Below are positions 47,146 through 64,000 of a stretch of 64,000 bases of DNA, piece by piece. Within the stretch, counting starts at the first letter, position 1. The number at the start of each line of letters is the position of its first letter. The stretch covers positions 117,044-181,043 of the forward strand of contig JAPDJW010000003.1 of NCBI GenBank assembly GCA_029258885.1, in the 5' to 3' direction. The translations under genes were made by a program, and so were the position numbers. The stretch is from Thermoproteota archaeon (GTDB taxonomy: Archaea > Thermoproteota > Thermoprotei > Thermofilales > B9-G17). The notes under the pieces were generated by a model. The model did no database searches. It saw only the letters and a program-made list of their open reading frames with translations, and was not told the origin of the DNA.

Positions 47146-48042
47146 TTAAATTTTGTTCATACTGTATCTTAGCCTGGTGGTATCCTCATTTTTTCCCGGC
47201 TTTCTGAATATAAGTAGTTTTTCATGATATATAAGCAGGAAGTCTTTTTTATGCACTTTTCTCCAATATTTAGTCGTAGTTTTCATTTTATGCTGGATTT
47301 TTATGATCTCCTCCTTTAAAATAAATCCTATCTCTAGAAATATTCTAAGCACGTAATGCGAGATCGGGACATAATGTTTATGAATTCTTGTATCGCCTAT
47401 TAATATTGCACAATATTTCCCGCTTTTTAAGACCCTAAACATTTCTTTAGCTACGTCCCTAAGCATACTTAGATATTCCTTTAAATTTTTGGCGTTTGAA
47501 AGGTCGCCTTCCATCATGGTACTATATTTTATTATATTGAAGTATGGTGGGTGTGTTGCTATTAGGTCTATGCTTTCATCCTCTATCTTATCCAAATTAC
47601 GTGCATCACCATGATATGCCTTAAACCAAACAAGGGGATTTAGGTATTTTTTAAGATAATATATTCTATGTAATGTTAGTATCACCGATTCGAAACATAT
47701 ATCAAGGAATATACAGTGCCTATTAAGAAGTAGGGCTTCAATTGCCGTTGTTCCGCTTCCGACCATAGGATCTAAAACTACATCGTATGGTTTAGTGTAC
47801 ATGCTAATTAAAGTCCTAGGAATCTGCGGGGGCCAGTTGCCACGGTAGTCACCCTTATGCGTTGCCCAACCACCTCTTTCAGGGAAGCTCCAGACAGTTG
47901 TGCTAGTGTCTCTCAATTCATTAGATGTGGGCTTTAGTCTCGGTATTTTAATTGGTGAAAGCTGTATCATCTGCCCGCCGATTTTAACGTAATTTTTCTT
48001 AGATACGTATTCGAGATAATCTTTGATGGTTAACTCTCTCAT
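47146..48042 (-). CDS. Amino (N4-C/N6-A) DNA methyltransferase B
   Basis: TTVWSFPERG.WATH..YRGNW.PQ, DPMVGSGTT and ATHPPY. Likely start is the ATG at 48042. Confidence 0.85.
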   Translation of the reverse strand: MRELTIKDYLEYVSKKNYVKIGGQMIQLSPIKIPRLKPTSNELRDTSTTVWSFPERGGWATHKGDYRGNWPPQIPRTLISMYTKPYDVVLDPMVGSGTTAIEALLLNRHCIFLDICFESVILTLHRIYYLKKYLNPLVWFKAYHGDARNLDKIEDESIDLIATHPPYFNIIKYSTMMEGDLSNAKNLKEYLSMLRDVAKEMFRVLKSGKYCAILIGDTRIHKHYVPISHYVLRIFLEIGFILKEEIIKIQHKMKTTTKYWRKVHKKDFLLIYHEKLLIFRKPGKNEDTTRLRYSMNKI

Positions 48043-48134
48043 TTGAAGCAAATTTTCACCAATAACTATATACAAAGAAATATAAAGTTGAATCTAATAC
48101 ATTATACCAAACGATCCATGATGCGGTGCATGTC

Positions 48135-48314
48135 ATGAGAGGAGACTATAAAAGGAAAATTCTAGAGCTTATCAGGGAGAAGGGGGCGATTACGCCTAAA
48201 GAAATTTCAGAGACCACCGGCATTAACTATAACACGGTTAGAGGAGTCCTTTACCGTTTACTAAAGGCTGGTTTAATTAGGAGAAGAAAGCGTGGACTAT
48301 ATGAGCCCGTTTAA
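48135..48314 (+). CDS. Small winged-HTH regulator
   Basis: TPKEISETTGINYNTVRGVLYRL.KAGLI; divergent from MTase B. Confidence 0.75.
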   Translation: MRGDYKRKILELIREKGAITPKEISETTGINYNTVRGVLYRLLKAGLIRRRKRGLYEPV

Positions 48315-48316
48315 AT

Positions 48317-49315
48317 TTACCACCATTTCATGCTCTCCTTAAACTTGCTTATCTTTTCATCTTTTTCAGGCTTCCTAAATACGAACAGGTGTTCATGGGC
48401 TATTAGATGGAAATCCCTTTCCTTCATCTTCCACGGGATCGTTCCCATCATGTGATGTTGCAGCTTAATTATGTCTTCTCTTAATATGAAGCCTACGTCT
48501 AGGAAAGCCTGCATTACCCTAAATGCTATGGGTACATAATGTTTATGTCTTCTAGTATCTCCTACTAGTATGGCTAGATATCTTCCGGGTTTAAGTACCC
48601 TATAGAATTCCTCTGCAACTTTCCTCATCTCATTCACGTACTCATTTATCGATGATACTTTAGACAAGTCTCCCGGAGTCTTCAGCTTAGCCTTCTTAGT
48701 ATACGATATTATATTAGCATAAGGCGGGTGCGTTGCTATCAGATCTATGCTTTCGTCCTCTATCTTATCCAAATTACGTGCATCACCATGATAAAGCTTG
48801 ATGATCGGCTTAATATAATCACTACTTGACTTTGCCTCCTCTCCACCCAGCCATGCGTCAAGATGTTGGTGTACGGCTAATTTGGGCTCATATTCAAAGT
48901 TTAGCCTATCCCACGTTAGCATTAAGGCCTCATAGTTTATATCTACCCCTATCCCATGCCTACCAAGCAGCTTACATTCAATTAAGGTAGTTCCACTGCC
49001 AACAAAGGCGTCTAAAACCGTCTCGCCCGGTGACGAGTATTTCAATATAATGTTCCGCGCAACCTGCGGCGCCCAATTTCCCCTATATTTAACGTTAAGG
49101 TAATGCGTCGCCCATCTACCTCGCTCAGGAAAACTCCAAACAGTCGTTTTCTCCAATTTAAAGTTCGCAGGCTGATAAGTCTCTATCCTCCACTTTTTCC
49201 CTATCTCTAATATAGAGTCCTCTATAGCTACACTACTATGATTTTTAATATATTCAAGATACTCCTCAAAAGGCACCTCACGCATACTTATGTACTTAAT
49301 CTCCCCCTCGCTCAT
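48317..49315 (-). CDS. Amino (N4-C/N6-A) DNA methyltransferase A
   Basis: DAFVGSGTT and ATHPPY; paralogous to 47146..48042. Confidence 0.85.
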   Translation of the reverse strand: MSEGEIKYISMREVPFEEYLEYIKNHSSVAIEDSILEIGKKWRIETYQPANFKLEKTTVWSFPERGRWATHYLNVKYRGNWAPQVARNIILKYSSPGETVLDAFVGSGTTLIECKLLGRHGIGVDINYEALMLTWDRLNFEYEPKLAVHQHLDAWLGGEEAKSSSDYIKPIIKLYHGDARNLDKIEDESIDLIATHPPYANIISYTKKAKLKTPGDLSKVSSINEYVNEMRKVAEEFYRVLKPGRYLAILVGDTRRHKHYVPIAFRVMQAFLDVGFILREDIIKLQHHMMGTIPWKMKERDFHLIAHEHLFVFRKPEKDEKISKFKESMKWW

Positions 49316-49478
49316 CGTTTAAGCCCAAGTTAAGCTTTCACAACATATATTATTTGAGTTAAATATGTATATTTCCTTGAGTTTCAAAGAATAGTCCTCC
49401 CCCACGGCAATGAAGCAGAGATAAATGTAAATTATCCTTAAATATATTATTAAATTATAGTTAGATAGTTGGACTGGT

Positions 49479-50384
49479 GTGGGAATGGTCCTCTACAGTG
49501 TGCTGGGCTTTAAATCCTTTGAAGACTACGTCACCCACTTCTTTAAGACACTGCTACCTACAAACCAGACCTACGAGTATTTCGTAGACTGGAAGAAGGT
49601 TAGAGAAAACGTTAGAAAACACATTGCTGAAATAAACCTCCTTAATGCACTATCGAAAGTTAGCCGAGACGAAAGAGAGGAATTACTAAGAGATATTTTA
49701 GCAAAATACCCTAGAACATTATCAGTAATACCATTAATAATAGCTGTAAGGGAGTCAGAGATACATATAATCGAGATCAGTAGCATGATCCTTAAGACAT
49801 ATAACTTCCAGCCAAGAAGCTTAAGCTCCAAGGAGATCGAAGAGATAGCCGAATTCTGTAGAAACATCGGCATAATCGAGCTATTCGACACTATAAACGA
49901 CCTATACGCGTATCTTCTGGGCGTAGAGGTAGGGCTTGACTCAAATGCAAGAAAAAACCGCTCCGGAGATATATACGAGAAGATAATTGGCCACATTCTC
50001 TCAAGAGCTATAAACGATATCTCGGAAAAACAAGGTCTAAAAGCCACCATTAGACACAACAGAACCCTACCAAATATAGGCAAAGAAATAGACTACATAA
50101 TATACATCAACAATAAGCCAAAAATAGCCGTTGAATGCAACTTCTACAACGTGACCGGAAGCAAACCCATCGAAACAGCAAGATCATACATCGAGCTAAA
50201 CAACATCCTAAAAAGGCTAAACACAACCTTCATCTGGATAACCGACGGCCCAGCATGGAGAAAAATGAAAAACAACCTACTAGAATCCATGCATAAAATA
50301 AACTATATTCTAAATACCTTCATGGCGAAAGAGCTTATAAAAAACATACTTACATACGAACTACAAGACAAAATCCCAGCTTAA
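49479..50384 (+). CDS. DpnII/MboI-family type II restriction endonuclease (GATC expected)
   Basis: DSNARKNRSG, ECNFY..GSK..ETARSY and FIWITDG. Confidence 0.85.
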   Translation: MGMVLYSVLGFKSFEDYVTHFFKTLLPTNQTYEYFVDWKKVRENVRKHIAEINLLNALSKVSRDEREELLRDILAKYPRTLSVIPLIIAVRESEIHIIEISSMILKTYNFQPRSLSSKEIEEIAEFCRNIGIIELFDTINDLYAYLLGVEVGLDSNARKNRSGDIYEKIIGHILSRAINDISEKQGLKATIRHNRTLPNIGKEIDYIIYINNKPKIAVECNFYNVTGSKPIETARSYIELNNILKRLNTTFIWITDGPAWRKMKNNLLESMHKINYILNTFMAKELIKNILTYELQDKIPA

Positions 50385-53031: not shown

Positions 53032-53973
53032 TTAGATTTTTATATTCTTTATTCTTGGAGTAAATGTTTCCTTGAACTTTTTGATAATATTTATTGTCCA
53101 GTTTATCAGTTCCTTTTTCTTGTTTTCATCTTCCATTACTTCCTCTATTCTTACTGGTTCAGGATAGTATAGTTCTATTCTAGAGCATCTTGAGTTTTTA
53201 AGTCTATTCCAGTTTAATTGAAAGCCTATGCTTTTTTCTATTTCTTCCTTCGTTTCTTTTAGTTTATCGAATATTTCCTTGTTTTTGTCATAGTCTCCTA
53301 CATCTATAACTAATTCTATTCGATATTTGATATCTCGCGTGAATACAGCAGAATACCAGAAGCCTGATTTACCCGCTCCTATGCTTAGCCAGTTTTGCGG
53401 AAGACCTTTTCTAGTTTTGGCTATTCCTTTTGAGTACAATTTTTCTGCTAGTTCTTGGAAGAATTGCTGATAGAGTAACGCTCTTCCTGTGAGCAACGTT
53501 CTTGTTCTTTCTCTTCTCCAGTTGTCCGGTTTTGATACTATGTTAAAGTAGACTGCTGGTTTTGATCCGTTTATTTTGAGGACTTGGAGCTCTATTCCGA
53601 AGAACGAGACTTCATTACTTATATTGTTAAGCCAATCAAGTGCACTTATGTGCTCCTCCCTGAATTCTGGACTTATCCATACTATCGTTGAGGCATTTTT
53701 CCCAGCAGAATACGTTATTATTTTACCCAGATGTTCGTGATCTGTTTTTCCTAGCTGAGATTCTATTATTACTAGTTTATCTTCACCGCTTAAGTCTCTA
53801 GCCACGATATCCGCACGAAAACTTCCAACCTCTGATTCTATTTCCAGGATTTCAAGCTCTATACCCAGAATTTCAGCCAACTGATCAATGTTCTCCGCAA
53901 GCCATCCATTGAACTCATTTTCGTTGTTCCACACATTCTTAGGATTAAGTTTTGTTAGCTTCCCCAGCTCCAT
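53032..53973 (-). CDS. NucS/EndoMS-like PD-(D/E)xK domain + DUF4268 protein
   Basis: EFNGWL, ESEVGSFRADIVA, IIESQLGKTDHEHLGKIITY, and a C-terminal QQFF..L / PQNWL region. Confidence 0.8.
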   Translation of the reverse strand: MELGKLTKLNPKNVWNNENEFNGWLAENIDQLAEILGIELEILEIESEVGSFRADIVARDLSGEDKLVIIESQLGKTDHEHLGKIITYSAGKNASTIVWISPEFREEHISALDWLNNISNEVSFFGIELQVLKINGSKPAVYFNIVSKPDNWRRERTRTLLTGRALLYQQFFQELAEKLYSKGIAKTRKGLPQNWLSIGAGKSGFWYSAVFTRDIKYRIELVIDVGDYDKNKEIFDKLKETKEEIEKSIGFQLNWNRLKNSRCSRIELYYPEPVRIEEVMEDENKKKELINWTINIIKKFKETFTPRIKNIKI

Positions 53974-54240: not shown

Positions 54241-55596
54241 TTATAAGTAGTAGAATATTCTTCGAGTTTTATTATATCGTATATCATGTTGACAGTAAGC
54301 AAATAGTGAGATTTTAATGGGGTTATGTTCATTACATAATTCTACGTAGCCAGCTCTTGATAGTGATCCGAGAACCTTTCTACTAGGTAATTTAGAGAAT
54401 CTTTTCATACTGCAAGAAACTATGCTAAAGGAGGGCGATATAAGTTTTAGAATCTCGCGCTTAAATCCCCTAGAACTGCCATGGTGTGGAACCTGAAAAA
54501 TAAATGGTAAAGTTTTATTTTTCAGTAGATTTTCATATCTTTGTCTGAATGAAGACCATATATCTTCCTTATCTAACCTTACGTCGCCTGTTAACAGAAT
54601 AAGGGAGCTGTATGGATGAAGCAGTCCAGTATAAATCACCCTATTTAGGATAGGGGGATGCATCGATAGCATGAATGCACTATTATAAGATTCCAAAGCC
54701 ATAAGTAGCGATAAACTAGTAAAGTTTATATCTTTCACTCCACACGTATCTTTAGCTAATTCCCTATAACATTGCCTAAGCTTCTTCTGGCTTTTGTATT
54801 CTGAAAGAATTCGTAGAATATCCCCTATACTTATCGTATTTAATCCAAATTTTTCCTCTATACATTTACGGAATTTCTCTAATGCATTATCGTTTACTGG
54901 GTATACATGGAATACAAGAAACATTTGAAATATGCAGGGATATTTTCCGAATAGTATGTAGGCATATTCTCCTACGTTATGAAAGTAGATTCTTGTATCT
55001 AAATTTTCTAAGATAAAATTCATTACATTCCTATCGAAAATATTACATATTTTCTTATCATTCATATCTAACTCCATCATCTTTGACCATTCAACTTTCG
55101 GCCTAATGGGCTTATCCCGTGGACCTTCAAATGGCATCCCATATGGAAATTCTGGCGATTTTTCCTTTCCTGTCCCTCTAAGAAATCTTATCTCCCTAAC
55201 CCCTAAATTCGCCAGAAATGATGCTGGCGATGAAAGAAATGAAAAATACCAGAGAGGCATATCTCTAAGAAATCCTTGACTTGCCGCAATAAATAATCGT
55301 TCATTTGGAAATATATAAGGAAGAACCACGGTATCAACTTTTACTTCGCTTAAAAGCTTAACTAAACCACTAACGTGGTCGTAGTGTAAATGAGAAATGA
55401 CTAGAAGATCTATTTTCTTAACCTTTTCAGCTAAGAAATCATTAAGCGATTTTTCTAATGCTTCCCTGCAAATTATATGGCTTCCACAATCGAAAACAAT
55501 ATTAAAGTTGTAATCGCTTGAATGCAAAGCCATAAATGTGAAAAGTCCATGACCTACTGGATAAAATTTTATATTTATACATAAATCCGGAAGCAT
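54241..55596 (-). CDS. MBL-fold metallo-hydrolase (ComEC/Rec2-like)
   Basis: VGHG, FDCGS, SHLHYDHVSG (HxHxDH), LTGD and QVPHHGS. Confidence 0.85.
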   Translation of the reverse strand: MLPDLCINIKFYPVGHGLFTFMALHSSDYNFNIVFDCGSHIICREALEKSLNDFLAEKVKKIDLLVISHLHYDHVSGLVKLLSEVKVDTVVLPYIFPNERLFIAASQGFLRDMPLWYFSFLSSPASFLANLGVREIRFLRGTGKEKSPEFPYGMPFEGPRDKPIRPKVEWSKMMELDMNDKKICNIFDRNVMNFILENLDTRIYFHNVGEYAYILFGKYPCIFQMFLVFHVYPVNDNALEKFRKCIEEKFGLNTISIGDILRILSEYKSQKKLRQCYRELAKDTCGVKDINFTSLSLLMALESYNSAFMLSMHPPILNRVIYTGLLHPYSSLILLTGDVRLDKEDIWSSFRQRYENLLKNKTLPFIFQVPHHGSSRGFKREILKLISPSFSIVSCSMKRFSKLPSRKVLGSLSRAGYVELCNEHNPIKISLFAYCQHDIRYNKTRRIFYYL

Positions 55597-55717: not shown

Positions 55718-57115
55718 TTAAAAGTAATAGCGTATATCTCTAATTAAAAAATCGCCGATACCTAGCTTAACTATACTAGCAACACGTTTAGCATATTTTA
55801 TGGTTACGGGTTCCCTTAGCATAACCCTCGTTGTATTCCAGTCCATTTTAGTTAAAGAAAAAACTTGCATAGCTAATTCCTCAATACTTCTCTCACCATA
55901 ACATCTATACAACTCTAAAGGCTTAGGTGTTCCTATGCCCGGATATGTTCCCTCCGCCTCTGAGTACCCAGTAGTATATAATAGCCCTTCCCTATCGCTT
56001 TTTCTAAGAAAAGTCCCCCTCATAGTTACTATATTTTCATCTAGCAACCTAAGATTTGGATCTTCCATAATGTAAAGCATATTTACGTCTTGGGTACCAG
56101 ATAACGCCGATAATGCTCCTTTTATTTCTTCCCCAGTAAAATTAAGTGTCCTATGTATTGTAACAGAATATGGTTTTTCATCATCCCCTATACTCTTTTT
56201 ATATGCTTCTATAGCTTTAGAAATGAGTTTTTTCATACCTTTCTCGGTTAGATACGGATTCTTATTCCATAGGTTAGGCATTAATTGGTCTTCTGGCTTG
56301 AAGTCAACTGCTGCCATATCCACAAATTCACCGTAAGTATTAAAGATCTCAGCTAGGCCTATAGCGATTACTTGTCCTTTTTCATCTTTCCTTATCCCAT
56401 GTCTAATACCTATGAAAACTGATGAAGCTGGAATTTCTCTAATTATCCAAGGTCTTCCGCCTGCTTTAACATAGGTGGCTAACGATAAATTCCATAATGT
56501 GTCTGCTAAATCATCTGGTTCAAGAGCCTTTTCCGTTATTATTTGTGTCTTTACTCTTGCTTTTACTCCCATAGCTTTAATTAAGGTACGTAAGTCTATT
56601 CCTCTTATATCTAATGTTCCTTTAAGTGATACAAATTTATTTTGTAAACTTTCTGGTATGTAAACATATACTACCGTATTGGAATCATAACCCATATCTA
56701 CGATATCTTGAAGCTTTTGATTATAGATCTCATTAAATTTTTTTATAAATGAATCCATTGTTCTAGTACTAAGCAAGCTGTTTAAGTAGCTGGGATCAAT
56801 AAATATATAATCGTTATCTGTCGGTTCAGCTAATTTTATCTTATATGTTTGTTCAAAGCCAGGATAAGGATATTTGATGGTTCTCCACGTAGATTTAATC
56901 GGATGCTGGGTTTTTAATCTCTTGATAAGTTTTGAAATTTTATTCTTAACGTGCTCAGTGCAAACAACCTTAACATATATGTTGTCAAATGTTCTAATCG
57001 AAAAGTTATAGTCATAGGGACCATTACGTGATAATCCTTCTTTAGGATCGATTATTCTATCGATTTGACCTCTAGAGAAGAGAAGGGAAGGTTCGCTCCA
57101 ATGAATGATCTTCAA
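55718..57115 (-). CDS. ago: Prokaryotic Argonaute, MID-PIWI only, catalytically inactive
   Basis: EPSLLF, P.EGL...GPYD, RTLIKA..KTQII, NLSLATYVKAGGRPW, GLLYTTG, YPGIGTPKPL and LTKMDWN..PVTIKYA. Tetrad positions read R (FIGIR), T (HRT) and K. Confidence 0.92.
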   Translation of the reverse strand: MKIIHWSEPSLLFSRGQIDRIIDPKEGLSRNGPYDYNFSIRTFDNIYVKVVCTEHVKNKISKLIKRLKTQHPIKSTWRTIKYPYPGFEQTYKIKLAEPTDNDYIFIDPSYLNSLLSTRTMDSFIKKFNEIYNQKLQDIVDMGYDSNTVVYVYIPESLQNKFVSLKGTLDIRGIDLRTLIKAMGVKARVKTQIITEKALEPDDLADTLWNLSLATYVKAGGRPWIIREIPASSVFIGIRHGIRKDEKGQVIAIGLAEIFNTYGEFVDMAAVDFKPEDQLMPNLWNKNPYLTEKGMKKLISKAIEAYKKSIGDDEKPYSVTIHRTLNFTGEEIKGALSALSGTQDVNMLYIMEDPNLRLLDENIVTMRGTFLRKSDREGLLYTTGYSEAEGTYPGIGTPKPLELYRCYGERSIEELAMQVFSLTKMDWNTTRVMLREPVTIKYAKRVASIVKLGIGDFLIRDIRYYF

Positions 57116-57121
57116 ATGAAT

Positions 57122-58162
57122 TCACCCCTCTAATGCATATTTCTTCCAAACATCATCCCTTTCAATTAAAGGAAGAGATAGTATTTTAGCGCTAATGCTT
57201 ATTGCTTCATTATCGTCGCCGACGCGAATATTAATGCAGTTACCACCGTTACTAAGGTAATATAAGAGAGCATTTAAAGCGTTTAGTCTCTGTTGAGTAT
57301 TTTTCAGCGCTAATTTACGGAATGCCCTATAAACATCAATTCCAAGTCTTCTAATAGTAGAGGGACGGGCCTCAAGAAAAATCACATGCCTTGGAATCTC
57401 GTAAGTACGTCCTTTAACATCAATAATTTGTAAAACTTTTCTATCTTCAACATACTCAGGACAATAAAGGTAGTCTCTACTCAGATACTTTATTTTCTCA
57501 ACTCTAATTTTCTTGCCTAGAAAACGGCATAATTTCATTGTTATCCAAGGACAAGCACGTCTGCACACAAAGACTATATCATTGTTAATGATGTCACTGT
57601 AATCCTTAGTCTTTACCAATGGAGTTACTCTCGGAAAAATAGTCAACATAAGTTTTCCTTCTACGAGATCAAGTTTATACCTGAATCCTTCATGAATCAA
57701 TAAAATAGAAGAATCCCTACTGAAAAACGTATTAATCAATTTTATATCAAACGCATTAGATATTTCCTTTTTAAGCTTAGGGTTAGGTTTGGAAACAAAC
57801 GCAACGTTTTTCCTTCTATAATCCCAAGTGAAGCCCCTGCTAATTAAATAAGACCTAAAAGACTTATAGAAAATAACTCTGAATATATTGAATTTTCTGT
57901 TGATTATATCAACTGCAGGTATATCCTCTAATTCCTCAAATATTACATCACCTTTGTTTAAGAGATCGATAACATTATTCTTATAACCAATAAAATAAAG
58001 TATCTTTTCATGAAAGAAGTAATAAGTATACGGGGTAGTGGATATTAGGTTATTTAATTCATTATAAGACATATCCGAGAGAATTTTTATCGCGTGTATT
58101 TTCTCAGGAAACTTGGTTACTTCTAACATATTAATATATATAAATTTTTTATTTTCGCTCAT
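57122..58162 (-). CDS. Argonaute-associated protein: N-L1-(PAZ-like)-L2 half of a split pAgo (Aga1/AfAgo-N-like)
   Basis: L1-like HEGFRYKLDLVEGKLMLTIFPRV; Cys cluster; L2-like QQRLNAL. The ATG at 58162 overlaps the upstream stop (ATGA); 6 bp to ago. Confidence 0.65.
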   Translation of the reverse strand: MSENKKFIYINMLEVTKFPEKIHAIKILSDMSYNELNNLISTTPYTYYFFHEKILYFIGYKNNVIDLLNKGDVIFEELEDIPAVDIINRKFNIFRVIFYKSFRSYLISRGFTWDYRRKNVAFVSKPNPKLKKEISNAFDIKLINTFFSRDSSILLIHEGFRYKLDLVEGKLMLTIFPRVTPLVKTKDYSDIINNDIVFVCRRACPWITMKLCRFLGKKIRVEKIKYLSRDYLYCPEYVEDRKVLQIIDVKGRTYEIPRHVIFLEARPSTIRRLGIDVYRAFRKLALKNTQQRLNALNALLYYLSNGGNCINIRVGDDNEAISISAKILSLPLIERDDVWKKYALEG

Positions 58163-59577
58163 TCCATCACCTTTAAGTTTTTTAAAATCCAACTTAATAT
58201 TGGTATTTGTCTAAGAACAATATAGCGGTCTATCATACCTTTTCTGAAAATTATATTTATGCACCTTATATGTGCTATAAGTAAAATTAATGGAATAAAA
58301 ATAACAAGAATATCAAATATAACATTAAATATACTTGTTGTTGTAAGACTAGAAGATAATATTGACATTAATTTGCTATAATTGTTCCCATTTTCTAAAA
58401 TAAAAATGATGAGGCTACTAAATTTATTTATATCAAAATTAAAGTAAAAGGGAAGCAATAAGAAATAATATTGAATAATAAGTAATATTGAGAATAAAAT
58501 AGATGATATCCTAGTATAATGTGCTGCCTTTTTCTCAATGTGAACAACTTTATCCTCAAGCGATTTTACAGCTAATTGAATTTTATCCCAGTCTTTTTTA
58601 TTCACAATATAACATTTGTCTCTTTTCATTAAGTATAGGAGCCATAAAGCGAAAGAATAGGACTCAAGATCTTCAACAGGCACATGTGGATACCATGCTG
58701 AACTACTAAGAATAATTTTTCCATTACTTATTTCAATAGCTTTTGATACTGCAGAGTGATCATCCCTTATTATCCTATTTGCTTCATCATCATTAAATCC
58801 TGCACTAATTAAGGAGGCTGCTTCTCTCAATTTCCTCTCTAAATCATAGATAACATCATTACATATATCACTAGAAATAAGGCTCTCTAATTTCTCTACA
58901 ATACGATAAAGGAGGGAATCATCGATATTTAACCCCGTCTTTCTTAAGTTTAATAAACCTATACCGAGCTTAGATAATTTTCCAATATTAAGTAAGTTCT
59001 CATCAAATGAGCCTATGAATTTAGTTATAGCTTCAGCTACTATATTCATATCCTCTTTCCTAGGCATAAAGGATATTCCGAATATAACTGATGGAAAGGC
59101 AGAGTTAGGCCTGTTAATTTTCTCTAAAAGAAAATCGTATGCATCCTTAATTATATTGCTGAATCCATTGATATCATGGAGCAGAAATATAACATATGAA
59201 GCTAAATCAATGGATTTCAACCATTTTTTACTCCTTATAGCTTCGAGAACAACTTTTATCATACGTTTGTGCTCAGAATTTAAGGTTTTGTACATGTAAA
59301 GAAGTTTGTATATTAATAGTGCTTCAATGACGAACCTTATATTTGAAATTAACCTATCATCATGATTACATAAAATAGATTTTATACTACCAAGCTTTTC
59401 CTTAAGATAATCAACATCTAATAGGTACTTATCATCTAGTTTTGCCAAGATATAGGCTCCGATTAAGTATGGAAAAAGATCATTATTCTTTCTGGCATGT
59501 ATCATTCCTAAGATAATATATTCTCTGAGCCTCCTCACAATACAATTTTCAGTAATTGAATACTTTAACTCCAACAA
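58159..59577 (-). CDS. Putative membrane effector of the Argonaute operon (large helical domain + 2 C-terminal TM)
   Basis: Hydrophobic segments ISSILFSILLIIQYYFLLLPFYF and IFNVIFDILVIFIPLILLIAHI; coupled to the downstream gene. Confidence 0.65.
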   Translation of the reverse strand: MLELKYSITENCIVRRLREYIILGMIHARKNNDLFPYLIGAYILAKLDDKYLLDVDYLKEKLGSIKSILCNHDDRLISNIRFVIEALLIYKLLYMYKTLNSEHKRMIKVVLEAIRSKKWLKSIDLASYVIFLLHDINGFSNIIKDAYDFLLEKINRPNSAFPSVIFGISFMPRKEDMNIVAEAITKFIGSFDENLLNIGKLSKLGIGLLNLRKTGLNIDDSLLYRIVEKLESLISSDICNDVIYDLERKLREAASLISAGFNDDEANRIIRDDHSAVSKAIEISNGKIILSSSAWYPHVPVEDLESYSFALWLLYLMKRDKCYIVNKKDWDKIQLAVKSLEDKVVHIEKKAAHYTRISSILFSILLIIQYYFLLLPFYFNFDINKFSSLIIFILENGNNYSKLMSILSSSLTTTSIFNVIFDILVIFIPLILLIAHIRCINIIFRKGMIDRYIVLRQIPILSWILKNLKVME

Positions 59578-59869
59578 TTCACCTTAATATAAATAGTTAC
59601 TACTGCTATTAAGCATTTCTATCTTCTAGTTCTTCGAATAAATGTAAAAACCGTTAATTATCACTGTTATAGTATCTAGTCTTCCCCAGTAATTTTTATG
59701 CTTAAAAATACTAATAGCAATCCTTTGATTAGTTTATCTCAAAATTACTGCCTTTAGAATTAGTCTATACTGTTTTCTCTATTATATATGTTAAGAAAAA
59801 CCAATATTAGATACTAAAATTTGGTAATAGTATTTGTGACTCTTTTTATATAAGTTATTCTTTAATTTA

Positions 59870-62779
59870 ATGGGGGGTATTTTGGTAAAAACACTTATTG
59901 AAAGCGTTAGGTTTCCTATAGGTATTGTTAATAAGGCTTCTGCAAAGGAGAAAGGTGGTGGGGGAAGACCACCCTACTGGGAGATGATTTTCTGGTGGAC
60001 TAGAAAGCCGCTAGCTGGGGCAAGAGCGGTAATAGCTGGTTCTCTACTACCCGAGGACACCAATGTGGCGAACTTCATTAGCTGGCTTAGGTTAAACTCG
60101 GATAAAACTCCACATAGGCTTAATCCAAACCTACCCGAGGATATTAGAAACAAGTTTAAGAAGGTAAGGTTGCTTGATCCATTTGCTGGCTTTGGCTCAA
60201 TACCCTTGGAGGCAATTAGATTAGGCGTAGGTGAGGTTGTAGCGGTAGAGTTCCTTCCGACAGCCTACATATTCCTTAAGGCAATACTCGAGTACCCGAA
60301 GAAATACGGGATAAAGCTGAAGATGGATGTTGAAAAATGGGGCAAATGGATAACTGAAAAGCTTAGAGAAGACCCTGACATAAGAGAGCTGTACGACCAG
60401 GACGTAGCAGTCTACATCGGGACATGGGAGGTCAAATGCCCTGTCTGCAACAGATACACACCACTAGTCGGAAACTGGTGGCTAGCCCGAGTCAAAGGCA
60501 AAAAATACGCCTACATGAAGCCCAAGCCAGAAAAAGACAGAGTAAACATAGAAATAATAGAGGGAGAAAGAGAGGGCACACCATCACCGAACGTCAGAGG
60601 AAGACCAGAACTGGCGGAATGCCTACTCTGTGGGAGCAGAATAACATACATAGACCCACAAACAGGCAGAACCTACAGATCCAGAAGCGAAGCATCAAGT
60701 AAAACAGTAAAAGGAAGATTAGAGTTCTACCCAAAATACTCCATAAGGGAATGGAACCAGAAGCTAGAGGAATACCTAGAGGGAAGAATAAGCCTAGAAG
60801 AGCTGAAAAACGTCAAGGCAAGACCAAGACTACTAGTCAAAGTGAAGATAGCTGGAAAAGACCTAAAATTCGAACCAGCAACTGAAGAGGACAATAAGAA
60901 GCTATGGAAAGCACTAGAAAAACTAAAGCAAATATGGAGAGACCCAGACATACCAACAGAACCTATACCTCCCTATGGAAATATAGGAGGAGGACTAAGA
61001 TTTCCTGTATATACTATAAATAAATGGTATCAGTTCTTTAACTCTCGTCAGCTCCTAACCCTAGTCAAGCTTGTTAAGCTAATTCGTGAAGCTGGCAAGA
61101 AGGTTGAGGAGGAGAAGCTTAGGGAGGGATTGAGCAAAGAGGAAGCATTCAAGTACGCAGAAGCAATAACAACATACCTAACAATAGCACTAGTAAGATT
61201 AGTGAATTTCAATTCATTAGTCACGACGTGGTATTCGGGTTCACTATTAACAAATAAGGTTCAGTCGTCTTTATCATTTAGAGGTCTAGCAATGACTTGG
61301 AATTGGTGCGATACAAATGCTCTATATGAAGAAGATAACCAGTACTCCATTAAAGGTAATATTAATTCTGTTATTAGAGCATTAACCTACCTTGTTTCTG
61401 GTGTTTCTGGTAGTTCTAGTAGGGTTAAGGTTTTGCTTGATGATGCTACTGTGCTTAGTAAGCTTGGTGATGAGAAGTTCGATATTATTGTTACTGACCC
61501 GCCTTATCGTGATGATGTAGCTTATGCGGAGCTTAGCGACTTTTATTATGTGTGGCTTAAGAGAGCTTTGAGCGACAATGGTTTGATGTCTAAGTTTTAT
61601 GCTGATGCTCTGGTTTATAGTGCTCAGTGGGAGTCTTTTGCTTTGAACGAGGTTAGCTGTAATGAAGGTAGGTTGAGGTACTTCGGTGTCAGGGAGACGG
61701 AGGATTACTATGTGAGGCTTATGGGCTTGGCTTTTAGCAGGATGTCGGAGTTGCTGAAGGATGATGGTTTGGTTGTGACTTATTTTGCTCATTCTAGTCC
61801 TGGGGCTTGGGTTGAGCTTATTGAGGCTGGTTGGAGGAGGGCTAGGTTAAGAGTTACTAGAGCTTGGAGTTTCGCCACCGAGTTGGCTCAGAGGGTTACT
61901 TCTAGGGGTAAGACTGCTTTGGAGTCTAGTATTGTTGTTGTTTGGCGTAAGAGAATTGAGGGGAAGGCTAGTGATTTTAGGGATGTTTATGTAGAGGCTT
62001 TGGAGGGTGCTAGGAGGGCTAGGGAGGTTGCGTTTAACTCAGGTCTTTCTGGTAGTGACTTGTTTTTGGCTACGATGATCGGTGCATTGTCGGCTTTTAC
62101 GTCCTATGATAGGGTGTTGAAGTTTGGTAGGGAGCTCTCCTCGAGGGATGTTGTTAAGGAATCTTATGCTATTGCTACTAGGGTTATTGCGGATGCTACT
62201 GAGACTATTAGGTCTCCTGAGGCGCTGTTTTATCTGGCTACTAAAGCTGTCTATAGGGTTTATAGTAGGCCTGAGGGTCAGCTTACCTTAGAGGGTGTTT
62301 CTGTGGAGCCTGTTGTTCTCTCTAGTCAGGATGTGATAATTCTCTCCTATGGTTTCTTAAAGGAGAGCGATGAAGATGTGAAGAGGGAGGGTGTTAGGAT
62401 GTTCTTGAATGCTAATGTTATAGGCGAATTTAAGGAGTCTGGTGGTGCTAAGGTGGCTAAGCAGAAGATGTTTGTGCTGTTGGAGCCTCTGGATCCTTCT
62501 TTGAAGGGTGTTAAGGATGTTCTTGGTAGGAGGAATGTTAATCCGATAAAGCTGGAGGCTGTTAGGAGGCCTTTGAATTCCGTTGATGTCCTTCATCTTC
62601 TTGAGTATTATGCTAAGCAGGGGAGAAGCGAGTTTGATGCGGCCTATAGGGCGCTCTACGATAGGTGTCCTGGGCTCGTTAGGGAGGCTGTTGAGATGGC
62701 TAGGGTGATAAGTAGGTTTACGAATGATCCGGAGGGGGAGTTGGCTAGGCTTTGTGTAGAGTATGTTGAGGGTAGGTGA
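59870..62779 (+). CDS. DUF1156 adenine-specific DNA methylase with Zn ribbon
   Basis: FWWTRKPL, DPFAGFGSIP, CPVC/CLLC, TDPPY and YFAH. Confidence 0.9.
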   Translation: MGGILVKTLIESVRFPIGIVNKASAKEKGGGGRPPYWEMIFWWTRKPLAGARAVIAGSLLPEDTNVANFISWLRLNSDKTPHRLNPNLPEDIRNKFKKVRLLDPFAGFGSIPLEAIRLGVGEVVAVEFLPTAYIFLKAILEYPKKYGIKLKMDVEKWGKWITEKLREDPDIRELYDQDVAVYIGTWEVKCPVCNRYTPLVGNWWLARVKGKKYAYMKPKPEKDRVNIEIIEGEREGTPSPNVRGRPELAECLLCGSRITYIDPQTGRTYRSRSEASSKTVKGRLEFYPKYSIREWNQKLEEYLEGRISLEELKNVKARPRLLVKVKIAGKDLKFEPATEEDNKKLWKALEKLKQIWRDPDIPTEPIPPYGNIGGGLRFPVYTINKWYQFFNSRQLLTLVKLVKLIREAGKKVEEEKLREGLSKEEAFKYAEAITTYLTIALVRLVNFNSLVTTWYSGSLLTNKVQSSLSFRGLAMTWNWCDTNALYEEDNQYSIKGNINSVIRALTYLVSGVSGSSSRVKVLLDDATVLSKLGDEKFDIIVTDPPYRDDVAYAELSDFYYVWLKRALSDNGLMSKFYADALVYSAQWESFALNEVSCNEGRLRYFGVRETEDYYVRLMGLAFSRMSELLKDDGLVVTYFAHSSPGAWVELIEAGWRRARLRVTRAWSFATELAQRVTSRGKTALESSIVVVWRKRIEGKASDFRDVYVEALEGARRAREVAFNSGLSGSDLFLATMIGALSAFTSYDRVLKFGRELSSRDVVKESYAIATRVIADATETIRSPEALFYLATKAVYRVYSRPEGQLTLEGVSVEPVVLSSQDVIILSYGFLKESDEDVKREGVRMFLNANVIGEFKESGGAKVAKQKMFVLLEPLDPSLKGVKDVLGRRNVNPIKLEAVRRPLNSVDVLHLLEYYAKQGRSEFDAAYRALYDRCPGLVREAVEMARVISRFTNDPEGELARLCVEYVEGR

Positions 62780-62784
62780 TTTTG

Positions 62785-64000
62785 ATGGATGTACGTAGTC
62801 TGCGTATTAGGGAGGAGGTTAAGGATTTAAGGTATGAGCCTGCCGTAGACTTGGGGGATGTAGTTAAAGGTTTGGCTCCACCGTTTATACAGGATCCTGT
62901 GGCGTTTTTTGAGAGGACTCATCTTACTGAGAGTATGAGGGCATTGATTGTAAAGACTTTCATGAACTTGATGGGGGTTAGGAGTGCTGTTGTCGGCGGC
63001 AGGAGGTATGAGGTTAGCAGTAACTTGATTCTTCTGCCTTCGGATCTCGGCGGCGGTAAGACTCATACGCTGATTCTCCTTTACCATATATTTAAGTTGA
63101 TTAGGGAGTCTGAGGATCTCGGGGATGTTGTTAGAAAGCTTAGGATATTGGATGCCGATATAGCTGGCTTTGTGGCGGAGAATTGGGAGAGTATTAAGAG
63201 GTCTTTCCGAAGGGTTATTGTCGTTGACTGTAAGTATGTTATGTTTGCTCCCAGCCCTGTTAAGCCCATTGAGATAGGTGGTAGGAGTATAAAGACTCTG
63301 TGGGGCTATCTGGGACACATGCTGGGTAGATATGATGTTGTGAAGGCTGCCGATGAGAGGGAGATGGCTCCTTATCATGACGACGTGTTTAGAATGCTTA
63401 ATGAAAGTGGGGCTTTGATTCTTATAGATGAGATAGGTAGGTATTATGATCAGAGTGGCTTAGAGCCTACTAGGATCTCTACCTTTCTGATGAATTTGGC
63501 TGAAGCCATGAGTAAGTATATGGTTAGGGAGGTTGCTGTAGTTGTTTCGGTGCCCTACGAGATTAGGGAGGGGAGGGTGGAGGCTAAGGCGGGCATGGTG
63601 TATGTGCATCCACCGGAGTTGATTAAGGCTATTAACGAGGTTTTAAGTAGGCCTAAGGTGGAGATAATAAAGCCTGTTGGGAGGCAGGATTTATCCGATA
63701 TTCTTAGGAAGAGGATTTTCGCTCACGGCAAGGAGGAGTTTGAGAGGTTTCTAGGAGAGTATATGGATCGTGAACTTAGTAGGGAGTATCCGACTCAGGT
63801 TAGGAGGGTTCTCGACGATAGAGGGTTCTGGAGGGAGGTTAGGGAGACTTATCCGTTTCATCCGATGTTTCTTGAGGTTTTGGAGAGATTGGCGTATAAG
63901 TTGCCTTATCTTCAGAGGACGAGGGATGCGATTAAGATAGCTGTTCAGACGGTGTTGGCGTTAAAGGAGGGGTTGTTCGACTGGCTTGAGGACGAGATTG
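62785..64000 (+). CDS. DUF499 AAA+ ATPase, 3'-partial (missing from the ORF track)
   Basis: Open to the window end; Walker A DLGGGKTH, Walker B LILIDE, LRKRIF and YPFHP. Confidence 0.88.
   Translation, partial: MDVRSLRIREEVKDLRYEPAVDLGDVVKGLAPPFIQDPVAFFERTHLTESMRALIVKTFMNLMGVRSAVVGGRRYEVSSNLILLPSDLGGGKTHTLILLYHIFKLIRESEDLGDVVRKLRILDADIAGFVAENWESIKRSFRRVIVVDCKYVMFAPSPVKPIEIGGRSIKTLWGYLGHMLGRYDVVKAADEREMAPYHDDVFRMLNESGALILIDEIGRYYDQSGLEPTRISTFLMNLAEAMSKYMVREVAVVVSVPYEIREGRVEAKAGMVYVHPPELIKAINEVLSRPKVEIIKPVGRQDLSDILRKRIFAHGKEEFERFLGEYMDRELSREYPTQVRRVLDDRGFWREVRETYPFHPMFLEVLERLAYKLPYLQRTRDAIKIAVQTVLALKEGLFDWLEDEI

Follow-up and report, generated by a model that had tools for sequence, protein, structure and literature searches.

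A three-gene archaeal Argonaute module with a toroid-fold membrane protein, an APAZ-only protein and an inactive short Argonaute

The canonical short prokaryotic Argonautes (pAgos) fall into the clades S1A, S1B, S2A and S2B (SPARSA, SPARTA and SPARDA; reviewed in PMC11370952), and according to the reviews their effector is fused to the APAZ domain (PMC11370952; PMC11788926). In the SiAgo-SiAga1-SiAga2 system of Sulfolobus islandicus M.16.4 (Zeng et al. 2022, 10.1101/2021.12.09.471704; Dai et al. 2025, PMC11788926; PDB 8ZNJ/9LGW), SiAga2 is a protein with two transmembrane (TM) helices whose gene precedes that of Aga1. SiAga2 depolarises the membrane; it has a basic pocket in its N-terminal part for anionic lipids and recognises SiAgo-Aga1 only in the state loaded with guide RNA and target DNA (10.1101/2021.12.09.471704; PMC11788926). 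This membrane effector is treated as a peculiar outlier in reviews (PMC11370952, PMC11788926). Downstream of the split long-B pAgos lies the gene of a partner that joins a conserved helical domain to a TM part (Af1317; Manakova et al. 2024, PMC10954474), the BPAM systems have bAgaM (Song et al. 2023, PMC10620215), and the helical N-domain of EcbAgaN docks the target-bound long-B pAgo (PMC13535254). Ryazansky et al. 2018 grouped 18 archaeal APAZ-only proteins as 'group III', with a membrane partner unmentioned (PMC6299218). Here we describe a three-gene module found in a 64,000-nucleotide stretch (the window) of contig JAPDJW010000003.1 of a Thermoproteota archaeon, in which the membrane protein P0001 is encoded together with the APAZ-only protein P0002 and the short pAgo P0003. 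The archaeal small-subunit ribosomal RNA model scored 1544 bits in this organism, against 1141 bits for the bacterial model. The module belongs to the known systems that join an inactive pAgo to a separate membrane effector, but the combination is new and the effector family uncatalogued. None of the pAgo-adjacent TM proteins discussed below has a model in PADLOC, and no relevant literature joining 'Argonaute' and 'toroid' was found.

The operon, its inactive pAgo and its APAZ-only protein

The three genes lie in the order P0001, P0002 and P0003 and are packed as an operon, as follows.

59578..59610, reverse strand: putative promoter and ribosome-binding region of P0001 (TATTTATATT box, then AAGGTGA, before the TTG), assigned by reading of the sequence
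58159..59577, reverse strand: P0001, a 472-aa protein with a toroid and two TM helices, first gene of the operon, assigned from the open reading frame and its translation, homologs and an AlphaFold2 (AF2) model
57122..58162, reverse strand: P0002, an APAZ-only protein of 346 aa from the likely start ATG at 58162 (open from a TTG at 58192), assigned from PADLOC APAZ matches and the start region
55718..57115, reverse strand: P0003, a catalytically inactive short pAgo of 465 aa (MID-PIWI), assigned from Pfam, PADLOC, PDB and motif alignment

The preliminary description of this DNA had reported a reading frame at 58159-59577, and it is indeed open for 472 codons from a TTG, while the database record of the protein has 471 aa. 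The Shine-Dalgarno-like AAGGTGA and the TATA-like TATTTATATT stand just 5' of this TTG. P0001 was regarded as a real gene because homologs with 24-36% identity were present in eight metagenome loci and one genome. The ATG of P0002 overlaps the stop codon of P0001 by 4 nt in the form ATGA, with a GGTGA motif ahead of it, and the TTG start of P0003 follows the stop codon of P0002 after 6 nt, behind a Shine-Dalgarno-like GAGGGGTGA motif. Judged from these junctions, the three genes are translationally coupled.

The order toroid-TM, APAZ-only and short pAgo was found in all nine other readable loci, eight from metagenomes and one from the genome G039, where synteny was counted as far as each contig reached and the metagenomes were scanned with a 6-sequence alignment of P0001. 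Identities across the nine loci were 24-36% for the toroid-TM protein, 25-43% for the APAZ protein and 34-64% for the pAgo, with parallel ranks, and the three genes therefore travel together. No homolog of P0001 was seen apart from a pAgo in the loci read. The proposed tie of P0001 to the pAgo was thus strongly supported by the synteny in 9/9 loci, the 4-nt overlap and the 6-nt gap. The G+C content of the module was 29-35%, compared with 41-46% around it, and its setting is a low-GC defence island with restriction-modification and other defence genes nearby.

P0003 matched the Piwi family of Pfam (2.5e-10) and the PADLOC models PDLC02436 (1.3e-100) and pAgo_I (2e-74), and consists of MID and PIWI only, with neither an N nor a PAZ domain. 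The closest solved pAgo was that of SPARSA, GsAgo (8in8_C, 473 aa), aligned over residues 8-451 against 16-458 with an E-value of 7.5e-35 and 124 bits, whereas SiAgo (8ZNJ_A) gave 7.3e-5 and 25 bits, setting P0003 apart from the SiAgo clade. The catalytic positions of P0003 are occupied by R, T and K (IGIRHG, HRTLN and YAK), where a control Piwi protein of the same genome has D, D and H (GLDTV, HRDG and YAH), so that P0003 cannot cut. An alignment of the Asp/Asp/His-Asp positions in five pAgos of the clade (window, L008, L011, L013 and L015) showed both catalytic Asp residues to be missing in each. Lacking these residues, P0003 therefore needs an effector. A maximum-likelihood tree was calculated from 17 MID-PIWI proteins, SPARSA and SiAgo sequences not being among them. 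In it the six pAgos with toroid-TM partners formed one clade (support 100/99), sister to the sampled clade of short pAgos with TIR-APAZ and Schlafen-APAZ partners (100/99) and apart from the split long-B-like pAgos (94/96).

A second Argonaute was encoded in the same genome (L039:1462-2664, reverse strand, corresponding to about 560875-562077 of contig C1 of G000). This MID-PIWI protein of 400 aa retains the catalytic Asp, Asp and His and was closest to the long-A CbAgo (6qzk, 1.4e-21), and no TM partner was seen within 6 kb of it. A weak PIWI-like match on contig C7 of the same genome (L036) was dropped, having no Pfam match.

Seven of the seven P0002-family members examined matched the APAZ part of the PADLOC model Aga_SIR2-PNTD1-PNTD2 (best E-value 9.7e-7; P0002 itself 9e-4), and three of them also matched the TIR-APAZ model. 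In these profiles P0002 begins at position 160 of 430 and at position 310 of 558, where the APAZ region lies, and it has nothing ahead of that region. No Pfam domain was detected, and a fused SIR2, TIR or nuclease effector was absent in the Pfam and PADLOC searches. As P0002 is an APAZ protein without an effector domain, the effector must be a separate protein. Four Cys residues of P0002 (C210, C214, C222 and C244; residues 210-244, window 57461-57565, reverse strand) were invariant in the seven members, and probably bind zinc in an insert that stands in the position of the PAZ domain of long Argonautes.

The module shares with SPARSA, SPARTA and SPARDA an inactive pAgo made of MID and PIWI only and an adjacent APAZ partner, and the class I models of PADLOC match. 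Those systems carry SIR2, TIR or a nuclease on the same chain as APAZ, whereas here the APAZ protein stands alone and the probable effector is a membrane protein with its own gene. Contrary to the rule of fused effectors given in the reviews, a pAgo of the short clade that is paired with a true APAZ protein thus uses a separate membrane protein. The order of membrane protein, N-L1-L2/APAZ-like protein and inactive MID-PIWI pAgo is that of the SiAgo system, likewise a three-gene archaeal module (order per PMC11788926). P0002 differs from SiAga1 by its sequence-level APAZ homology, which SiAga1 lacks (PMC11788926), and no match between SiAga1 and P0002 was obtained. When 401 genomes from the phylum and 120 from the class were scanned with the pAgo, no SiAgo-like locus was found.

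Architecture and fold of P0001

The AF2 model of P0001 was built from a 10-sequence alignment, one model being made per family, and showed a mean predicted local distance difference test score (pLDDT) of 79.9 and a predicted template-modelling score (pTM) of 0.64. The following parts were distinguished.

58606..59556, reverse strand: (alpha/alpha)6 toroid domain, cytoplasmic, residues about 8-324, with the family-invariant W119, E231, P300 and R319 and without terpene-cyclase or thioester motifs
58441..58524, reverse strand: TM helix 1, residues about 352-379, preceded by a K/R-rich linker (Kyte-Doolittle 2.23; AF2 helix 349-379; present in 15/15 members)
58267..58335, reverse strand: TM helix 2, residues about 415-437 (Kyte-Doolittle 2.89; AF2 helix 416-446)
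58162..58266, reverse strand: basic juxtamembrane tail, residues 438-472, predicted to be cytoplasmic (alignments; positive-inside pattern in 15/15)

The protein is nearly all helical, with 12 helices in residues 12-258, further helices and two small hairpins up to residue 339, long helices at 349-379 and 416-446, and then a helical tail. Kyte-Doolittle peaks were located at residues 357-375 (2.23) and 416-434 (2.89), and the 40-aa loop between the TM helices, which is shorter in relatives, was modelled as a short helical hairpin (383-413). An earlier reading of the sequence had proposed a helical domain of about 370 aa followed by two TM helices; the helical build and the two TM helices held, while the soluble part measures about 350 aa by the model and the hydropathy profile. 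The charged linker and short basic tail proposed at the same time correspond to residues 326-351, where K, E and D are abundant, and to the 38-aa C-terminal tail with seven K/R and a net charge of +5. Both termini are predicted to be cytoplasmic because K/R residues precede TM helix 1, the loop is neutral and the tail is basic.

An exhaustive phmmer search of 1.84 billion representatives at E<=1e-3 detected 13 proteins related to P0001, mostly of 430-464 aa; the matches looked up were all unnamed metagenome proteins, one of them from a metagenome-assembled genome of Bathyarchaeia. A word-indexed search of 5.8 billion proteins returned P0001 itself only, a scan of viral contigs gave no relatives, and a search of 398 other genomes from the phylum gave no member of the family. 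Judged by their names, the phmmer matches did not include SiAga2 (ACR42213.1), and none of those looked up came from Sulfolobus. All 15 full-length members share the two TM helices, a K/R-rich stretch before the first, a neutral loop of 19-40 aa and a basic tail. In the alignments W119, E231, P300, R319 and R438 were invariant and N11, S127, G167, E252, G447 and P459 nearly so, the tail thereby carrying a conserved R438...G447...P459 motif, and ten basic positions of the toroid, R15 among them, were conserved.

Searches of Pfam (even at E 0.1), PADLOC and PDB sequences with P0001 gave no match, in line with the preliminary description, which had recognised no TIR, SIR2 or nuclease signature; a housekeeping family was likewise not matched in them. 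The possible alpha/alpha-toroid suggested in the same description was borne out by the AF2 model together with structural comparison. VIA-align against 48,161 chains listed 50 matches, all of them (alpha/alpha)6 toroids spanning residues 8-324, the best being class II terpene cyclases, glycoside hydrolases, epimerases and thioester domains with 7-14% identity. Foldseek against the PDB gave E-values of at least 0.04, with complement C3d thioester domains in the top rows (probability ~1.0), and the Atlas leads were squalene-cyclase and prenyltransferase families. None of the motifs DxDD, DDxxD, QW and CGEQ was conserved in the 15 members. The toroid as a terpene cyclase was rejected, DxDD and QW being absent from 15/15 members apart from a single non-conserved DRDD and Pfam giving no match, and so was a complement-type thioester domain, CGEQ being absent in all members. 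The (alpha/alpha)6 toroid proteins such as class II terpene cyclases, C3d/C4d and GH105/GH88 have neither a C-terminal TM hairpin nor a pAgo context, unlike P0001. P0001 thus gains a defined fold, which is met again in a membrane protein that partners an unrelated pAgo clade.

That partner is family A4, which is encoded in Thermoproteota downstream of a split long-B-like pAgo and folds as a toroid followed by two TM helices, the same build as P0001. Comparison of the two families by hhalign gave a weak, co-linear match over the first 150-165 or so columns with a probability of 45-78%; the E-value was 2.2e-4 with the 10-sequence alignment and 1.9e-5, at the probability of 78%, with the 15-sequence alignment, while the controls (reversed, unrelated and 30 column-shuffled) stayed at E-values of at least 0.05. 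The shared build and the weak profile match suggest that P0001 and A4 may have an old ancestor in common, and thus that the membrane effectors of different pAgo clades may be related by descent. A profile search with A4 returned its own family only and gave no link to Af1317. Truncated pAgos beside proteins of 400-455 aa with two C-terminal TM helices were also found in other Thermoproteota genomes (L051-L054). Against the TM partners of L051, L053 and L054, P0001 gave no signal by hidden Markov models or hhalign. These two-TM proteins (L051:1433-2644, L053:2770-4131 and L054:2465-3832) lie downstream of, or convergent to, the truncated pAgo, and no similarity to P0001 or A4 was detected.

P0001 resembles SiAga2 in being a separate protein with a soluble N-domain and two C-terminal TM helices, and both have basic residues in the first helix (R15/R16/R18 in P0001 and R7/R8/K12/K13 in SiAga2). 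With Af1317 and bAgaM it shares an alpha-helical N-domain followed by TM helices and a gene beside a catalytically inactive pAgo. Those proteins are encoded downstream of a long-B-derived pAgo, whereas the gene of P0001 comes first in its operon and its partners are a short-clade pAgo and a true APAZ protein. Af1317 has 337 aa against 472 aa of P0001, and P0001 was set beside Af1317 and bAgaM by their published descriptions.

Candidate function of P0001

We consider it probable that P0001 is a membrane effector of abortive infection, triggered by docking of the target-bound pAgo-APAZ on its toroid as with SiAga2. This reading was favoured because no other effector belongs to the sensor, its partnership with P0001 is obligate, and the same way of working has been published for two systems. 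The two-helix hairpin would hold the toroid and the basic tail against the inner face of the membrane, and the inactive pAgo and the stand-alone APAZ protein, presumed to form a heterodimer, would act as the sensor. Carrying a small guide paired to the nucleic acid of an invader, the sensor would change shape and bind the toroid, upon which the TM hairpins would rearrange or oligomerise and the membrane potential would be lost, leading to death or dormancy of the infected cell. Both the pore formation or membrane disruption and the docking on the toroid, which the preliminary description had put forward, are proposed by analogy with SiAga2 and with the N-terminal helical domain of EcbAgaN.

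Several points weigh against an effector role. The toxicity of P0001-family members is itself assumed by analogy, and the TM helices of the family showed no conserved polar or charged pore-lining residues in the alignment. No named effector was similar to P0001 in the Pfam, PADLOC, PDB and phmmer searches. The invariant or nearly invariant acidic toroid residues D124, E231 and E252 would also suit an enzyme. Furthermore, the neighbourhood count omits four of the ten full-length representatives (P0009, P0012, P0014 and P0016).

The toroid could instead be an enzyme or lipid-handling module, which pAgo-APAZ would activate toward a substrate of the inner leaflet, such as an isoprenoid lipid, a polyprenyl-phosphate carrier or a lipid-linked glycan, with the TM hairpin serving as an anchor. 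The fold matches to terpene cyclases, glycoside hydrolases, epimerases and thioester domains, the Atlas leads to squalene cyclases and prenyltransferases, the conserved carboxylates named above and the invariant W119 and R319 agree with such a role, and archaeal membranes are isoprenoid. We nevertheless regard it as unlikely, as the motifs of these enzymes are unconserved in the 15 members, Pfam gave no match at E 0.1, the identity to the enzymes is 7-14%, and the conservation of the TM hairpin and the tail exceeds the need of a plain anchor.

P0001 might also be a non-toxic membrane tether or regulator, which would hold pAgo-APAZ at the membrane, for example where it meets entering DNA, or keep it inactive, with interference proceeding by another route. 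The strict synteny and the coupling show partnership, not toxicity, and EabAgaM of BPAM is not toxic alone (PMC10620215). Against this, the pAgo is catalytically inactive and the APAZ protein has no effector domain, no other conserved gene of the module could serve as the effector (the neighbouring MBL and DUF4268 genes are absent from 9/9 other loci), and SiAga2 is the toxic component of an analogous system; a tether is accordingly judged quite improbable. That P0001 is an unrelated membrane protein standing beside the pAgo by chance hardly deserves consideration, given the same order in nine further loci at 24-36% identity, the 4-nt gene overlap and the absence of the family from the other genomes of the phylum searched.

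A broader possibility, which we hold only tentatively, is that the P0001 family, A4 and perhaps SiAga2 and Af1317 go back to one ancient Argonaute-associated membrane effector, whose toroid, similar to that of terpene cyclases, would have isoprenoid or anionic membrane lipid as its ligand or substrate. In that case pAgo immunity would be linked directly to the chemistry of membrane lipids, and the older design for inactive pAgos would be a separate membrane effector and not an APAZ fusion. Returning to the abortive-infection effector proposed for P0001, the toroid offers a testable candidate docking platform and a possible lipid-binding site for this class of effectors, and the module a small, thermophile-derived three-gene system for structural work.

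Neighbouring genes and related loci

The gene next to P0003 in the window encodes an MBL-fold protein (54241-55596, reverse strand) matching a LmuA-like model of PADLOC (4.9e-19) as well as the RTasMBL and Avs1a models. It was rejected as a second effector of the module, being 121 bp away from the pAgo gene behind its own AT-rich promoter-like spacer and absent from all nine related loci, and is probably a separate defence gene. The DUF4268 protein (53032-53973, reverse strand), which matches the PADLOC candidate system PDC-S11 (1.3e-96), was likewise rejected as part of the module, being absent from the same loci. On the other side lie a methyltransferase-like gene with DUF1156 (969 aa) and a DUF499 gene (2.3e-87), the former overlapping the start of the latter. 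The two genes (59870-63999, forward strand) run past the window end, are divergent from the pAgo operon, have a higher G+C content of 44-46% and probably constitute a further defence or modification system. The same island contains a type II restriction-modification unit at 47146-50384, made up of a DpnII-type restriction endonuclease (2.6e-76) and two N6/N4 DNA methylases.

In the related locus of genome G039 (L007:6716-8875), the pAgo was present as two open reading frames (257 and 213 aa) and the APAZ gene was short, with 268 aa and a match in two pieces, which could be due to decay of the module or to assembly errors. Type I restriction-modification genes (HsdS, HsdM and HsdR) flank the module in two distant relatives (L007:10242-15507 and L013:11299-16091). 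Small EVE or DUF365 (PUA-like) proteins were encoded directly 5' of the toroid-TM gene in three related loci, and none in the window; these proteins might serve as optional accessories that read modified bases. Their genes are as follows.

L009:226-675: EVE or DUF365 (PUA-like) gene
L012:808-1254: EVE or DUF365 (PUA-like) gene
L012:1885-2310: EVE or DUF365 (PUA-like) gene
L015:7531-7974: EVE or DUF365 (PUA-like) gene

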